From a virus (taxonomy: Duplodnaviria > Heunggongvirae > Uroviricota > Caudoviricetes): a DNA stretch of 15,043 bases. The stretch is from IMG/VR virus record IMGVR_UViG_2541047845_000008, one strand, 5' to 3'. The translations under genes and the position numbers were made by a program. The notes under the pieces were generated by a model. It had not been told where the DNA came from. It made no database searches and saw nothing but the letters and a program-made list of their open reading frames with translations. This document shows positions 2,616-15,043 of the stretch, one piece after another (the first letter of the stretch is position 1; every line of letters starts with the position of its first letter).

Positions 2616-2955
2616 GCTCGTCCTCTTCTTCTGTTTCCGGTGGATTTTTACGGCGGCTTATCGGGTCAAAACCGAGCAAGGAGGCCATTTTTATCATCAC
2701 TCTTTCAGCGTCGGATTTTGCGCTTAATGCGGGGTTTCTGCTCTCGCCGCCCTGACTGTTAACAATGCTGAACCCGCGCGCCGCAAGGTCTGCGACGGCT
2801 TTCCGGTAAATGGAGTAGTTGACACAATACAGTTCCAGATTGCTCCAGTCGGCGGGGGTCAGGTCTCCCCGTTCCGCAAGCTGCCGCGATTTTTCCCGCC
2901 ACTGCTTCACGGCGATGTCATCCAGGTAGGCGGGGGCTTTCGGTGGTCTTGCCAT
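2599..2955 (-). CDS. Phage terminase small subunit (P27-family-like)
   Basis: 118 aa, MARPPKAP... N-terminus and acidic C-terminal tail; positioned immediately upstream of and overlapping TerL, downstream of HNH and the putative cos region. Confidence 0.8.
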   Translation of the reverse strand: MARPPKAPAYLDDIAVKQWREKSRQLAERGDLTPADWSNLELYCVNYSIYRKAVADLAARGFSIVNSQGGESRNPALSAKSDAERVMIKMASLLGFDPISRRKNPPETEEEDELDRLE

Positions 2956-3243
2956 GCTTATTTTTCGTCAGATTATTTTTCAAAAAATTCCCGTGCATAA
3001 AAATTTGAGGAGGCGTTCGGTGTCCGGCAGGGACGGTTTCGTCCTGAAAACCACCCCCACCCCCTCTGACGGCCTCACCAGCGATTGCGAAAACATTCCA
3101 TGACCTCGCGGTCACGGTCGGTTAATCGCTTCGCTGTGGTGCGTTCTGTGCGCCCTGTCCTGTTGGCTTTGTGCCCTGTCTCCTGTGTCTTCCATGCGTC
3201 ATGCTGCCTTATCAGTCCACGAATCAGCCTGTTTTGTTCCTGT
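2956..3243. other. Putative cos / terminase recognition region
   Basis: The only sizeable non-coding gap (about 290 bp) inside the packaging module, between HNH and TerS, where HNH-dependent cos phages of the HK97 type place cos. Contains palindrome GGACG-GTTT-CGTCC (about 3031-3044), a C-rich tract CCACCCCCACCCCC (about 3052-3065), and two near-identical pyrimidine-rich direct repeats CTGTGCGCCCTGTCC / TGTGCCCTGTCTCC (about 3146-3185). Confidence 0.35.
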
Positions 3244-9063: not shown

Positions 9064-10818
9064 TTATAAAAACGCGTCGCAATCGTCTGTTGTTATTGCG
9101 TTAGTCTGCGTTACTCCCTTAACTTTCCGCGTAATATATTCATGTCCGTAAACTTTCGCGGCTGGCTTCATAGCCTTGCCAAAGTCATTTACGTTTAGCG
9201 GTTTGCTCCTGCCTGCGTATGCCATAAACGCCAGATAGACGCGGTAAAGGCTGTTCCTGGTCGTGTACTTCACTGAATCGCCACCGCCCCCCATCATCAG
9301 GCCGCGCGCTTCCTCCAGAAAATTCAGGAACTGGCAAAACTCAATAACCGGATCCGTCTGTTGCTTTATTGCCAGTGCTTCATCACCGTCACGCTGTTCC
9401 AGTAGTAAAGCCCGTGCCTTCTCAGGGTCGGTAAAGTTCGCCAGCAATCGGCGGATAATGACAGGGATTTCAGCCGCAATCTTTTCCGGTAGCTCCCTGT
9501 CTTTTTCGGCCTCACTGACGATATTGTCGAAACGGAAAATTACGCGACGACGTGACACACCTCCGGCCCGTTCGGTGAATATCATCGGATTGTTATTGGT
9601 TGCCAGCACCACCGCCCTGATTACCGCCGTAAAACGCTTTTCATATTTCGGGTTAATTTCCACGGGGTCGCCGCCCGTGATTTTCTTGATGCCCGTTCCT
9701 TCGCCTGTATATTTCGGCTGGTCAGCCAGGACGATAAGACGACTCCCGACAACCTGCGCACGTCCACCAGCATCATCAAGCGATGTCATTTCAGCGCTTA
9801 CCGTGTTCTGTTTCCCTGCCAGAAGGCTGGCTATGTGCGTGAATGTACTTTTACCGCTCCCGCCATCTCCGGTGGCCTCAATAAACATCTGCCAGTCGTA
9901 CCGGTTCGCCATAATCATGTACAGCGCGGCACATATACGCATCATCTTGCGCGGGTCTTTTCCGGCTGCGTGCTCAAGCCATTTATGAAAGTTTGGCGCG
10001 TTATCGCGGATGTTCTCCCCTGGTGCTGGTGGCGTGTACTCAATGCCGTTGTGCGTGGTGATCCAGTTCTCCGGCGTGTGCGGGGAAAATTCCCCCGTTT
10101 TCAGGTCAAGCGCACCATTGGCGAACGGCAGCAAATCGCCGGACGGCTCGCCCATTGGTTCGGCAATAACTTTTAACGCTTCCACGGCGTTATTGATTAC
10201 GCGCTTGCTGAAAGTGGCCCTGTGCTCTGAATAGATCGCCACCATTTCGCGGCTAAGTTCCATTGTGCTGACCGGACACCATACCCCGCCGCGCCATACG
10301 TGAACGATTTCACTTTCAGGATGTACGCAAACGCCATCAAAGCGATCGGCAAGCAGCTGCGCGCGCTCACTGTCCGCCATCTGCGAAAGTTGCGCCTTTT
10401 GCTTTACCGGAAGCTCAATGACCAGACCATCAGAAAGATTCTGGCGCTCACGGGCCAGATATTCGCGCCAGTTCTCCACCTTCTGACCGTGCATACCCTC
10501 AGGATAAAAATTTGCATCCTGTACGCCTGCCGCCGCCAGCTTCTGGCCAATCGCCTTTATCATTACTGGCGCAAGATATCCGGCCCTGAATATGCGCACG
10601 GATTTTCTGCCTTCCGGCACAATTTGCAGCTTATCCAGTTCTGATAACTGCTGCTCCCCAAGCCACACAGGAGGCTCATTATCTCCGGCCATACGCGCAT
10701 CATGTTCCTGCCATTGTTTCGCGTGTGCCCAGGCATCACTACCCGCAAAAATAATGACTTCTGTTCCTTTGTGTTTTATGCCGCGTGACTGCTGTTTTAC
10801 GTTCGGTGCCAGTTTCAT
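9064..10818 (-). CDS. DNA primase/replicase, P4 alpha-like family
   Basis: 584 aa with Walker A GDGGSGKST and surrounding NTPase motifs; architecture resembles satellite primase-helicases. Its ATG overlaps the stop of the upstream small gene (ATGA). Confidence 0.85.
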   Translation of the reverse strand: MKLAPNVKQQSRGIKHKGTEVIIFAGSDAWAHAKQWQEHDARMAGDNEPPVWLGEQQLSELDKLQIVPEGRKSVRIFRAGYLAPVMIKAIGQKLAAAGVQDANFYPEGMHGQKVENWREYLARERQNLSDGLVIELPVKQKAQLSQMADSERAQLLADRFDGVCVHPESEIVHVWRGGVWCPVSTMELSREMVAIYSEHRATFSKRVINNAVEALKVIAEPMGEPSGDLLPFANGALDLKTGEFSPHTPENWITTHNGIEYTPPAPGENIRDNAPNFHKWLEHAAGKDPRKMMRICAALYMIMANRYDWQMFIEATGDGGSGKSTFTHIASLLAGKQNTVSAEMTSLDDAGGRAQVVGSRLIVLADQPKYTGEGTGIKKITGGDPVEINPKYEKRFTAVIRAVVLATNNNPMIFTERAGGVSRRRVIFRFDNIVSEAEKDRELPEKIAAEIPVIIRRLLANFTDPEKARALLLEQRDGDEALAIKQQTDPVIEFCQFLNFLEEARGLMMGGGGDSVKYTTRNSLYRVYLAFMAYAGRSKPLNVNDFGKAMKPAAKVYGHEYITRKVKGVTQTNAITTDDCDAFL

Positions 10819-11934: not shown

Positions 11935-12151
11935 GGTGCACCTCCTGCACATCAGCCATGATAATTTTTCCGGCCTTATCCAGTGCCTGATCGGCTTTTA
12001 GCTGCACAAATGCTAAATAATGGAAGATGCATTCTGATTCTCTGGCTGCGTGTTTATGCGCCCTGTCAGCAATAACAGAAATATCAATCAGCGCATGCAT
12101 TAGCGTTATGATGGCTTCGGCGGCTGCGTCCGGACGGGTGTTATTGCACAT
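11927..12151 (-). CDS. Hypothetical protein (74 aa)
   Basis: ATG with GGAGG Shine-Dalgarno; overlaps the downstream gene by 8 nt. No family recognised. Confidence 0.5.
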   Translation of the reverse strand: MCNNTRPDAAAEAIITLMHALIDISVIADRAHKHAARESECIFHYLAFVQLKADQALDKAGKIIMADVQEVHHA

Positions 12152-12347
12152 GGCACACCTCCTGACGAATACGGGCAGCGAATACCATCACGCAGCCAGC
12201 CGGGGATTGCTGGCGTGCTTCCTGTTCGCTGGTGGCCTCAATGGTAATCACGCGCGGTTGTGCCGTGCTCAGGGCGATAAAACGCCAGATGTATTTATTC
12301 AGGTTGTGCGAATCCCGCCCTTGCGGGTGTGTGGTATGATTTAACAT
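12141..12347 (-). CDS. Hypothetical protein (68 aa), first gene of the leftward operon
   Basis: Only the 3' 68 codons of the 354-aa track ORF are plausible: ATG at 12347 with GAGGT Shine-Dalgarno, just downstream of the predicted leftward promoter. The rest of that ORF runs antisense through the regulatory region. Confidence 0.4.
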   Translation of the reverse strand: MLNHTTHPQGRDSHNLNKYIWRFIALSTAQPRVITIEATSEQEARQQSPAGCVMVFAARIRQEVCHVQ

Positions 12348-12443
12348 AGCTACCTCGATACTTTCGCTATCGTTGGTGGTTAGAAGCCCCGTTACTGCTC
12401 CTACAGTGCGGGGTTTCGTCGTTTCTACACCTTGCCTTAATAA

Positions 12444-12497
12444 GGTGTTGAACACCAATTTAAATCGAGGTGTTAAACACGTCAAGTGTTGAACACT
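12444..12497. promoter_or_regulatory. Three palindromic operator-like sites in the divergent control region
   Basis: GGTGTT-G-AACACC (12444-12456, perfect), GGTGTT-A-AACAC (12469-12480) and AGTGTT-G-AACACT (12485-12497, perfect); centre-to-centre spacing about 25 and 16 bp, between the leftward operon and the rightward small regulator gene. Confidence 0.6.
12457..12485 (-). promoter_or_regulatory. Candidate sigma70 promoter of the leftward operon
   Basis: On the minus strand: TTGACG (-35, plus 12485-12480), 16-17 nt spacer, TTAAAT/TAAATT (-10, plus about 12463-12457). Operator sites overlap the -35, spacer and start region. A rightward candidate (TTGAAC at 12489-12494, 17 nt, CATACT) lies back to back. 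Confidence 0.4.
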
Positions 12498-12546
12498 TAT
12501 TTTTTTTCCTGCATACTGCATTTGTTTTTTATGAAGGGTGCTCAAC

Positions 12547-12726
12547 ATGGCGACAAAAGCAGTAAACGCAAAATCACAAACAGTTGCGGCAAGGGTTCCA
12601 CATGAAGTTATGAACAATGTTGAGGCGGTAAAAATGCCCGGCGAAAGTACAGGGCAGTTTGTTACAGCTGCATTAAAGCGGGAAGTTGAATACCGCCAGC
12701 GTCGCAAGGCCAAAGAATCAGAATAA
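12547..12726 (+). CDS. Small ribbon-helix-helix-like DNA-binding protein (putative island regulator)
   Basis: ATG at 12547 with AAGGG Shine-Dalgarno (the track starts on GTG at 12538). The pattern beta-strand (QTVAARVP), helix (HEVMNNVEAV), turn (KMPGES), helix (TGQFVTAALKREVEY), then a basic tail fits the RHH (Arc/CopG-like) fold. Encoded next to the operator array. Confidence 0.5.
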   Translation: MATKAVNAKSQTVAARVPHEVMNNVEAVKMPGESTGQFVTAALKREVEYRQRRKAKESE

Positions 12727-12783
12727 TCACTATCAGCGCCGTGGCGTGAGGTACTCCGGCGCATTGCTTTACAGGTCAGTACT

Positions 12784-12993
12784 ATGAGCAAAAAACACCG
12801 ATCAGCAGATGAGATTTTTGCAGAACAACGAAGATTGCTTTTGCAAAGTATCATTTCACGCCAGCAAGAGAAGGCGCGAGCTAAACAAATGCCACCAAAT
12901 ACAGAACCAGCGCCTACAAGATTTGCGCTTGATGACTTTCTCGATAAACACCCCAGGGTAATGAAAGCAAACAAAAACCGCCCACCAGGCTGA
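12784..12993 (+). CDS. Hypothetical protein (69 aa)
   Basis: ORF downstream of the RHH gene on the same strand, followed by a strong terminator. No family recognised. Confidence 0.4.
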   Translation: MSKKHRSADEIFAEQRRLLLQSIISRQQEKARAKQMPPNTEPAPTRFALDDFLDKHPRVMKANKNRPPG

Positions 12994-13088
12994 TCACATT
13001 GCCCACCAGCCTGATAGCGGCTATCATCCCCGTGCTTATGTTTGAGATCACACACACAAACGGCGCAGCGGGTTATCTGTTCAGAAAG

Positions 13089-13116
13089 GCGGCTCCATTT
13101 CGGGGCCGCTTTTTTT
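13089..13116 (+). terminator. Rho-independent terminator of the rightward regulatory transcript
   Basis: GC-rich stem GCGGCTCC / GGGGCCGC (8 bp including one G-U) with loop ATTTC, followed by T7 (13110-13116). Confidence 0.6.
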
Positions 13117-13262
13117 ATTCCTGAAAAACCCCAATTTTGTTGTTTTTCAGTTTCACCAGGGCGAACGAATCCCCGCCCACGTTCTGGCGTATATTCAATC
13201 TTCATGGTTATAGCTCTGTGTTCAGATGATTGATGTGTGGCGGCTGCGTGCCGCCAGCGTGA

Positions 13263-13451
13263 TTAATGAACTGCCTTGCAGCTATCCTTCCAGGCCAGAA
13301 CCTCGGATAAAGACCAGCCAACGGAACGACCGCCAAGTTTACGACGTGATGGGAATTGTCCGGCCTTTTCCAGGCGGTAGCGACACGTACGGCTAAGGCC
13401 GGTTAGTTTTTCGCATTCTTTTTCACGTATAAACCGATCAGTGCTTAACAC
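13263..13451 (-). CDS. alpA: AlpA-family transcriptional regulator / excisionase-like protein
   Basis: 62 aa; motif EKLTGLSRTCRYRLEKAGQFPSRRKLGGRSVGWSLSEVLAW is the characteristic AlpA helix-turn-helix signature. GTG start with AAGGGGG Shine-Dalgarno; directly downstream of int. Confidence 0.85.
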   Translation of the reverse strand: MLSTDRFIREKECEKLTGLSRTCRYRLEKAGQFPSRRKLGGRSVGWSLSEVLAWKDSCKAVH

Positions 13452-13825
13452 TATTGCCCCCTTTCGTTTCTTAAAGAGTTATTTCGTGTTCTATTGCGTT
13501 GGGATGTGTCTGATTGTGTCAGGATGATTCAGAGTTGGCAAATGTTGAGGCCGTATGGTTTACAGAAAGAGGAATAATCAGGATAAAATCATTTAATTTC
13601 ATGTTAATACAAAGGCATAAAATATTGTTTCATGCCTTTTTTCTCGCTATTTAAAGAGTGATTCGCTAGTGTATAAAAAACCAGCAACACATTAAAAATC
13701 AGCTACTTATAAATCCGTACACTTTTTCGCCTCTTGTTCGTAGTTGTTCCGCATTGTTGCTCATTGTTGCACGTTGTATCTGTTCGCATATCCAGTATGC
13801 GCATACTGAAAAAACACGAAAAAAA

Positions 13826-15043
13826 TTATTTTCTTCTGGCTACTGGTAGCGTGGTTACGTTTTCATGTGTTCCCGCCAGTATCCCTAACCGCTCCGTCCA
13901 CATATCCAGCGCATTGCGTTTAGCATCCAGATAACGGGAATGATTATAAACTCGCTGCATTCCTGGCATCTGGTGGCCTGTAAGCTGCTCCACGACATGC
14001 GGATCAACGCCTAAATCGTTCAGCATGGTTGTAAAGGTGCGCCGGATGTCATGCAGTGACCAGTGAGGGTGATTAAGCCTCCTGTGCACTAATCTGCCGT
14101 ACTGCGATACGCTGGCCTCCTGTTTCACTTCCCCCAGCAATAAGCCCGTGTGCCTGTTCTGCTCCACCAGCTGCGTGACGAACGGCAGGATCGCTTCCGG
14201 TATGGGCCGGAATATTGCGACCTTCGTTTTGCTGTGCTCCTTCGGAACGGTCCATAGCATTTCCGTAAAATCCCACTCCCCGATCTCCGATAACCTCAGT
14301 TCTACCGTTCTGGCTCCGAAGACAATCAGGAGGCGGATTAACGCGACGTAGTAAGGGGAAAATATTTTTTTGTCCAGTGCCTGCAATAATTCGCCAAGTT
14401 CTTTGTTACTTAAGACACGTTCGCTTATATCCGGTTTTTTCCCAACGTCCGCCACGTTCAGATCGTCCAGAACGTTGCTGATTGCATAGCGCCGCCTACG
14501 GCAAAACTTAAGCGCCTGTTTGCACGCCTGTAGCACGAATCCGGCAGTAACAGGCGTTCGCTTTGCCACCTGGTCAAAACAGGCCAGCCAGTGCCGTAGC
14601 TCGCATTTATCCAGCGGCATAGCACCAATCTGCTGTATTACGTGATTATTAAGTCGCCTTTTCAGGGCGATATAATCCACGCGGTTTTCCTTTACGTAAT
14701 ACTCAAGCCAGTAGGTGAGCGCATCGCCAACCGTTACCGGCTTTAACGCTTCCTGTACGGTGTAATTAAGCTCATGACGTGGATTTTTCCCCTCTGCCAG
14801 CCATGCGCGACACTGGGCGGCTTTTTCCCTGGCTGATTTCAGGCTCAGATCAGGATAATTTCCCAGCTTAATGCGTTCCGGTGGTGCCCCCCTTCCCGTT
14901 CCGGCCCTGTAAGTGAAATACCAGGTCAATTTCCCTGATGTTAAATATTTCACGCTCAGGTTTCCGCCATCACTATAAAACGTGTTTTTCTCCGCTGGCT
15001 TACCATGAAGTTTCCTTAGCAAGGTATCGCTCAGTTTGTTCAT
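13826..15043 (-). CDS. int: Tyrosine recombinase, P4-type integrase
   Basis: 405 aa; N-terminal arm-binding-like region, core-binding domain, and catalytic C-terminus with R ... HDIRRT ... and YNHSRYLD (catalytic Tyr region). Its ATG is the last three bases of the window, so its upstream region and the adjacent att site are outside the window. Confidence 0.95.
   Translation of the reverse strand: MNKLSDTLLRKLHGKPAEKNTFYSDGGNLSVKYLTSGKLTWYFTYRAGTGRGAPPERIKLGNYPDLSLKSAREKAAQCRAWLAEGKNPRHELNYTVQEALKPVTVGDALTYWLEYYVKENRVDYIALKRRLNNHVIQQIGAMPLDKCELRHWLACFDQVAKRTPVTAGFVLQACKQALKFCRRRRYAISNVLDDLNVADVGKKPDISERVLSNKELGELLQALDKKIFSPYYVALIRLLIVFGARTVELRLSEIGEWDFTEMLWTVPKEHSKTKVAIFRPIPEAILPFVTQLVEQNRHTGLLLGEVKQEASVSQYGRLVHRRLNHPHWSLHDIRRTFTTMLNDLGVDPHVVEQLTGHQMPGMQRVYNHSRYLDAKRNALDMWTERLGILAGTHENVTTLPVARRK

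Follow-up and report, generated by a model that had tools for sequence, protein, structure and literature searches.

The control region of this satellite probably works as a genetic switch with three promoters, in which a ribbon-helix-helix (RHH) repressor and an antisense RNA hold the element off and induction overrides both. The sites, their positions, the covariation between operator and protein and the structure of an RNA on the plus strand come from comparative sequence analysis; from them we infer binding, repression, expression of the RNA and a link of induction to AlpA or a helper. In the proposed mechanism, the RHH protein very probably binds three 11-bp GTGTT-N-AACAC sites, probably as one dimer per site, with the invariant residues K9, S10 and R16 reading the outer GTG/CAC and the variable residues 12 and 14 reading the core. 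Bound at OL2, in the spacer, and at OL1, over the start, it would block a strong leftward promoter, which is predicted to drive the operon of Icd-like, replication and capsid/packaging genes; at OR it would limit its own promoter. An RNA of about 80 nt from the plus strand, transcribed from a -10 that lies within the opening codons of the Icd-like gene, would be complementary to the leftward leader, its Shine-Dalgarno and its AUG, and would block the translation or stability of transcripts that escape repression, which would create a threshold. Induction would have to override both locks.

The satellite and its control region

The window, the whole stretch of 15,043 nucleotides that was analysed, is a capsid-forming PICI (cf-PICI) satellite. 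Such elements are defined by int, alpA and a primase gene, by their own capsid, protease, portal, head-completion and terminase genes, by the absence of tail and lysis genes and by a size of about 15 kb (10.1101/2022.09.08.507074). The window encodes an integrase (13826-15043, minus strand), AlpA (13263-13451, minus strand; Pfam Phage_AlpA, E 5.4e-17) and a D5-type primase (9064-10818, minus strand), and its ORFs also include genes for the capsid, protease, portal, head completion and terminase and none for a tail or lysis. An island of E. coli IAI39, located between phoQ and roxA, is 99.6% identical to the control region of the window and its flanks, and its annotation is exactly the cf-PICI gene set.

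The first leftward gene encodes an Icd-like protein of 68 aa (12141-12347, minus strand; NCBIfam phage_ICD_like 69.8 bits, cutoff 25; PHROG 6196). Its reading frame starts at ATG 12347, which corrects the start at 12348 given previously. On the other strand, a 59-aa protein of the YlcI/YnfO family with a predicted RHH fold is encoded at 12547-12726 (plus strand; NCBIfam NF041551). Its start was also revised, from GTG 12538 to ATG 12547, and all homologues begin MATK. The ORF list contains a further ORF of 69 aa in the same orientation as the RHH gene (12784-12993, plus strand). Family searches gave no match for it, and a homologue, 81% identical, follows the RHH gene in locus L061. In the prototype island EcCICFT073, a 57-aa ORF after the RHH gene (L064 4743-4916) has, by eye, a FALxxFL motif in common with the 69-aa ORF. 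A small ORF after the RHH gene is missing from most loci of other genera.

A terminator-like hairpin read from the sequence, GCGGC-N11-GCCGC followed by TTTTTTT (13089-13116, plus strand), ends the unit formed by the RHH gene and the 69-aa ORF. Its minus-strand tail, facing the alpA transcript, is much weaker, and the hairpin is predicted to be a strong terminator for the RHH unit only; a weak STnc50-like match in Rfam lies over it. The alpA gene is upstream of the control region, about 700 bp from the palindromes and in the same orientation as the leftward operon, and the convergent RHH unit and the hairpin lie between the two. A truncated ORF follows alpA (12984-13205, minus strand), begins MKIEYTPERGRGFVRP and contains the terminator hairpin, which suggests that the module of RHH gene, 69-aa ORF and control region recombined into an older alpA-Bro/Icd arrangement. 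The IAI39 copy of this ORF is named a partial Icd-like pseudogene by PGAP, and a similar N-terminus (..PEQGRGFVRP) is encoded after alpA in EcCICFT073.

A promoter scan found a leftward promoter-like site composed of TTGACG (12485-12480, minus strand), 17 bp and TAAATT (12462-12457, minus strand), with a predicted start near 12450. Among the 47 of 49 loci with a recognisable promoter of the form TTGAnn-N17/18-TAnnnT, the -35 is TTGACG in 28, TTGAAG in 10, TTGAGG in 5 and TTGACA in 3. The predicted rightward (RHH) promoter, read from the sequence, has TTGAAC (12489-12494, plus strand), N17 and CATACT (12512-12517, plus strand); a TATACT-like hexamer is found at -36/-35 from the RHH ATG in about 47 of 49 loci. 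This architecture is kept from Escherichia to Xenorhabdus, Proteus, Pectobacterium and Yersinia. An inverted repeat, ACACCTT-N8-AAGGTGT (12427-12448, minus strand), overlaps the left edge of OL1 and probably forms a stem-loop at the 5' end of the leftward mRNA. Most loci have a repeat at the same place, of another sequence, and the element may be an mRNA-stabilising 5' hairpin. In L047 and L048, minus-strand G.U wobbles were seen by eye in repeats of this type.

Exact matches to GTGTTNAACAC occur at 12445-12455, 12470-12480 and 12486-12496. Allowing up to one mismatch, the window has 4 sites against 0.40 +/- 0.58 expected, and none of 200 dinucleotide shuffles reached 4. Extended to 13 bp, GGTGTTGAACACC (12444-12456) and AGTGTTGAACACT (12485-12497) are perfect palindromes, while GGTGTTAAACACG (12469-12481) is perfect over 11 bp only, in agreement with the two perfect and one near-perfect palindromes of the first-pass annotation. 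The predicted operator OL1, GTGTTGAACAC (12445-12455), is directly downstream of the leftward -10 and over the predicted start; OL2, GTGTTAAACAC (12470-12480), is in the spacer of the leftward promoter and abuts the -35; OR, again GTGTTGAACAC (12486-12496), is over the rightward -35 and just upstream of the leftward -35. The overlap with the leftward promoter and the rightward -35 that had been described is therefore confirmed, by the promoter scan for the former and by reading of the sequence for the latter. Centre-to-centre spacings of the three sites are 25 and 16 bp, which differ from classical cooperative RHH arrays and count against the proposed mechanism.

Two other sites were considered. 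The near-palindrome GTGCTTAACAC over the alpA start (13441-13451) was rejected as a fourth operator because EcCICFT073 has the same sequence, though its RHH protein and operators belong to another class, and because cognate sites outside the control region were not found in other loci. A degenerate site, GGTGCTCAACA, covers the start codon of the RHH gene (12537-12547) and was treated as chance, since it is not kept in L004, a locus of the same class. A separate inverted repeat of 12 nt, TACTGCATTTGT / ACAAAAGCAGTA (12514-12525 and 12553-12564, 92%), has one arm on either side of the ribosome site and start codon of the RHH gene and takes the place of the operator found after the rightward -10 in other classes; the transcript may begin downstream of its 5' arm.

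The RHH protein as probable reader of the palindromes

The 59-aa protein scores 59.7 bits against NCBIfam NF041551 (cutoff 30), and the near-identical IAI39 protein has the same PGAP name. The predicted monomer has a beta-alpha-alpha fold resembling solved RHH domains. RHH proteins act as dimers whose two-stranded antiparallel sheet enters the major groove; in the monomer modelled here, the N-terminus is not a strand. Residues 10-17 (S-Q-T-V-A-A-R-V) alternate between polar and hydrophobic, and residues 12 and 14 would face outward in an RHH strand. RHH folds have a G-x-S/T/N turn between the helices, which G32-E33-S34, invariant in 29-32 homologues, would fit. No Pfam RHH family matched the protein and 32 homologues at E up to 1, the RHH-type PSK_trans_fac gave faint matches in 2 of the 32 members, and a PDB sequence search with the profile gave chance matches only. 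YnfO of K-12, in the Qin prophage, belongs to the family as a distant member; its surroundings differ, and a triple operator is not obvious there. A toxin-antitoxin pair made up of the RHH gene and the 69-aa ORF was also considered and was rejected, as a second gene is absent from most loci.

To compare the sites, 56 loci with RHH homologues were taken from Enterobacterales, from one genome per species, and E. coli variants were added to them. An unbiased search for the most repeated 9-mer recovered the operator at three constant positions in nearly every locus, as an 11-bp GTG-N5-CAC element at about -103, -78 and -31 from the RHH ATG. The first is just past the leftward -10, the second is inside the leftward spacer, with GTCAA (equivalent to TTGAC) or TTCAA directly after it in most classes, and the third is just past the rightward -10. 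OL1 is found at about -102/-104 in most classes and at about -113 in the QMTT class, and OL2 at about -72 to -79. A site at -63 (OR) is specific to the QT-AAR class (L001, L004, L008 and L060); the other classes mostly have a site after the rightward -10, at about -30, which the window does not have.

The operator core varies between loci, all copies within one locus change in concert, and differences in the core go with differences at residues 11-15 of the RHH protein. By residues 11-16, QT[VLI]AAR goes with GTGTTGAACAC, QS[VLI]T[AV]R with GTGTAAGACAC, QMTT[VI]R with GTGTATTTCAC, [KR]KLEAR with GTGTCAGCCAC, KRFDVR with GTGTC[CG]GACAC, Q[SA]LK[SA]R with GTGTGGCCCAC and QK[LV]Q[AT]R with GTGGACTCCAC. 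The matrix of these seven protein classes against operators, covering 51 loci, is perfectly diagonal, of which co-inheritance of the adjacent operator and protein alone would give some part; only the concerted change of the copies and the two comparisons given below go beyond co-inheritance. Essentially no cognate sites were found elsewhere within +/-3 kb in the 51 loci. Further classes occur in L026, L037, L042, L054 and L056; Klebsiella, Proteus and Xenorhabdus are genera with further classes, and at least nine classes were seen overall. Mutual information with operator class is greatest at residues 14 and 12, where it reaches 0.86 and 0.80 of the maximum, while K9, S10 and R16 are invariant in the protein, as are the outer GTG and CAC in the operator. 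In L026, L037 and L054 the outer triplets were changed as well (CTGGCACCCAG, CTGGATTCCAG, roughly 100 nt before the RHH gene), and the N-terminus is MTRDNVNNKS versus MATKAVNAKS, a hint that residues of the N-terminal arm may read the edges of the operator.

Two comparisons decouple the covariation from descent. The protein of L008 (Kosakonia) is 80% identical to that of L024 outside residues 11-15 and has a different operator, and is only 62% identical to the protein of the window and has the same operator. The natural chimera P0027, found in L061 and L062, joins a QSVTAR N-terminal half to a C-terminal half of the window type, and its operators are GTGTAAGACAC. None of the neighbouring proteins behaves in this way: Icd-like proteins are 95-100% identical across different operators, AlpA is 31-100% identical or absent within one operator class, and the identity of the replication protein (primase) does not follow operator class. 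Because the core tracks residues of the RHH protein and not AlpA, the Icd-like protein or the replication protein, the RHH protein is very probably the operator binder. Among the candidates named by the first-pass annotation, the RHH protein is thus retained on the covariation with residues 11-15, the first leftward gene is dismissed by its near identity across operators, and a host factor is unlikely, since several operator classes coexist within one species, E. coli. As the sites occupy the spacer, the start and the rightward -35, repression of both promoters would follow, and the 59-aa protein is a putative repressor and autoregulator.

That the palindromes are instead sites of AlpA, the known PICI activator and a protein of the excisionase family, is a reading with some points in its favour: AlpA is the sole experimentally supported regulator of these islands (PMC6092414) and is encoded 700 bp from the palindromes. 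It is scarcely credible given that the same operator occurs with AlpA proteins 100%, 66%, 35% and 31% identical, and also without AlpA nearby, and that the near-identical AlpA of the window/IAI39 and CFT073 go with different operators, GTGTTGAACAC and GTGTGGCCCAC. Furthermore, sites over the spacer and the start are in repressing positions.

A host or helper-phage protein might also bind the palindromes, the RHH protein being unrelated to them, for example an antitoxin-like autoregulator only. We consider this very unlikely. A single host factor cannot read the at least four operator classes found within E. coli alone, the copies in each locus change together with the RHH beta-strand, and the RHH gene is alone in its transcription unit in most loci and so has no toxin partner; no homologue turned up among 50,697 phage records searched by tblastn with the RHH protein, which also speaks against such a binder.

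Repeated 11-mers within an A/T-rich stretch upstream of replication genes would also suit replication-origin iterons read by the downstream primase or helicase. We give this reading next to no weight, because identical operators occur with the D5-type primase of the window and with the RepA-family helicase that replaces it in L060, primase identity is independent of operator class, the sites keep a fixed register with the -35, -10 and start elements, and published PICI origins are downstream of pri-rep (PMC6092414).

Among the loci that share the operators of the window, and with them the RHH protein as their probable reader, L004 of Edwardsiella hoshinae (2784-3171) has an RHH protein 100% identical over 57 aa and the same three operators. 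Its neighbours have diverged from those of the window (AlpA 31%, Icd-like 54% and primase 52%), and the switch thus seems to be passed on as one cassette from element to element and from genus to genus.

A predicted antisense RNA over the start of the leftward operon

The stretch 12348-12440 had been taken as a plain leader. This was not borne out, as it encodes a conserved structured RNA on the plus strand that is antisense to the translation start of the first gene. The predicted cis-antisense small RNA, of about 80 nt (12347-12425, plus strand), consists of an outer helix (12347-12354/12375-12382), a stem-loop (12356-12372), a 14-bp terminator-like hairpin (12383-12417) and a U-rich tail, and is complementary to the ribosome site (Shine-Dalgarno) and AUG of the Icd-like gene. 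By BLAST, the conservation of 12340-12448 extends to many more genomes than that of the operators.

RNAalifold on 45 distinct loci gave a three-helix consensus of -31.5 kcal/mol on the plus strand against -8.2 on the minus strand. In the alignment, 97.4% of cells are paired and 14 of the 24 pairs have compensatory changes; none of 500 shuffles reached the observed values of either, and nor did slid controls. The plus strand has 165 G.U against 2 A.C, the latter being 2 positions that are G.U on the minus strand. Since the G.U pairs fall on the plus strand, the folded molecule is a plus-strand RNA, antisense to the leftward leader. The window sequence itself folds at -35.2 kcal/mol (z -5.7), and a covariance model of the RNA scores 78.9 bits on the plus strand and 8.6 on the minus strand. 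The same model found no second copy near the truncated Icd-like ORF after alpA. Rfam gave no relevant match, including to C4 and isrK, over the whole window at the gathering threshold or over 12000-13900 at E up to 5.

The predicted promoter of this RNA is an extended -10, TGgTATGAT (12332-12340, plus strand), inside codons 3-5 of the Icd-like gene. It has no clear -35. All 49 of the 49 distinct loci have a TAnnnT hexamer whose distance to the following helix 1 is exactly 8 nt, despite differing N-termini of the overlapping protein. The RNA would start near 12347, opposite the AUG, and end after the hairpin 12383-12417. Intrinsic terminators have a G+C-rich stem with a U-tract straight after it. 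After the covarying 14-bp stem there is a mean of 5.4 T in 12 nt; in the window this tract is interrupted (UUUCGUCGUUUCU), and a simple terminator scan made no call.

The hairpins of 12347-12425 could also act in the leftward mRNA leader, in attenuation or stability, or as DNA only, with no antisense RNA being made. The leader is transcribed on the minus strand anyway, this strand folds better than shuffled sequences (z -2.5), and the proposed antisense promoter lies in coding sequence and has the weak point at its -35 already mentioned. Such a reading is unlikely, however, in view of the excess of plus-strand G.U pairs (165 against 2 on the minus strand) and the difference between the two consensus folds. 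The fixed spacing of TAnnnT, over codons that differ, and the presence of a U-rich tail after the hairpin on the plus strand only also argue for the antisense RNA.

Induction, related systems and distribution

Gram-negative PICIs were described with unidirectional transcription, an 'unclear' global repressor and AlpA as the helper-induced activator (Fillol-Salom et al., PMC6092414). The prototype of that work, EcCICFT073, carries the module: its YlcI/YnfO gene, on the opposite strand, belongs to the QALKAR class, and it has two GGTGTGGCCCAC sites together with the conserved promoters and the leader hairpins. Its RHH gene and small ORF (L064 4743-5153) have locus tags that were added late (C_RS30120, C_RS30800), which suggests that they were absent from the original annotation, and this may explain the 'unidirectional' description of the island.

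AlpA of Pseudomonas is a processive antiterminator (PMC7969949), alpA is required for cf-PICI induction (10.1101/2022.09.08.507074), and overexpression of AlpA alone induces EcCICFT073 (PMC6092414). As EcCICFT073 carries the module, the RHH lock would be either not absolute or downstream of AlpA, and AlpA would have to act above or through the switch. The first-pass annotation had called the region 'the master repression switch of the island', which is not supported; the published required activator is AlpA (PMC6092414; 10.1101/2022.09.08.507074). The outline of that interpretation otherwise stands, sharpened to the RHH protein as binder and extended by the antisense RNA. As the most likely route of induction we would propose helper-induced AlpA transcription from the right, whose read-through would also interfere with RHH expression; alternatively, a helper protein would inactivate the RHH protein. 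That AlpA-dependent read-through feeds the operon and hinders RHH expression is speculation, and a helper-encoded antirepressor is an equally open possibility.

The immI region of phage P22 has the RHH repressors Mnt and Arc, the divergent promoters Pant and Pmnt and the antisense RNA sar. It is the nearest analogue of the proposed switch, whose type of mechanism would be classical. Both have a small RHH repressor divergent from the controlled operon, operators that overlap back-to-back promoters and a short cis-antisense RNA, here predicted, over a translation start in that operon. On the other hand, no sequence similarity to Arc/Mnt was detected (no Pfam match), there is one RHH gene instead of two, three separate 11-bp sites take the place of one tetramer operator, and the operon is that of a satellite, with replication and capsid genes, and not an antirepressor operon.

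In immI of P1/P7 (c4 RNA-icd-ant) and with the CI RNA of P4, as predicted here, an RNA blocks the start of an operon and the first gene is Icd-like. P4 CI-type immunity RNAs (Rfam C4, isrK) have been reported in this same 'dynamic zone' of some Gram-negative PICIs (PMC10111431). In the present region neither C4 nor isrK matched, even at E up to 5, and the predicted RNA is cis-antisense, from the opposite strand, and paired with a putative protein repressor, whereas the RNAs of P1 and P4 are sense-strand and processed from the leader. Stl/Rpr of the Gram-positive PICIs (SaPIs) is likewise a divergent repressor by int that silences a replication/packaging operon (PMC6092414), but Stl is a larger helix-turn-helix protein inactivated by helper proteins. 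The protein of the present region is an RHH of 59 aa, and induction needs AlpA. The temperate phages P2, P2 Hy dis and WPhi (PMC1904268) are also related elements with differing repressor-operator specificities at the same position; here, a beta-strand of about 5 residues and a 5-bp operator core would switch specificity, in at least nine classes.

We put forward tentatively the wider proposal that Gram-negative PICIs and cf-PICIs, including EcCICFT073, carry a diversifying heteroimmune RHH-operator pair and a cis-antisense RNA that keep the island silent, that helper induction flips the switch, by AlpA read-through across the convergent RHH unit or by a helper antirepressor, and that the operator classes are immunity groups among co-resident satellites. 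Should the repressor model itself hold, it would supply the missing 'off' side of the switch in Gram-negative satellites, previously thought to be repressor-less, and assign a function to the uncharacterised YlcI/YnfO family. It would also offer at least nine natural orthogonal pairs of a 59-aa repressor and an 11-bp operator, with specificity in two or three residues, and make the induction of these islands by helper phages directly testable. A full-text literature search found no paper describing the module, and the switch appears to be undescribed so far in this large, actively studied group of satellites.

Of 5426 complete E. coli genomes, 1320 carry the module at least in part, and 498 have at least 80% of the control region. 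In genomes with two or three intact copies, each copy has a different RHH/operator class (L021/L033/L042 in Xenorhabdus innexi, L023/L028/L054 in X. mauleonii, L031/L034 and L046/L050), which fits heteroimmune co-resident satellites; X. indica, where three copies are of the KKLEAR class and two of these sit at the ends of contigs, is a possible exception. In L006 and L007, from Enterobacteriaceae RIT693 and Cedecea neteri, a QTLAAR-class RHH gene occurs without the upstream leader, antisense RNA and leftward operon and with a degenerate site after the -10 only, and looks like a solitary or remnant copy.
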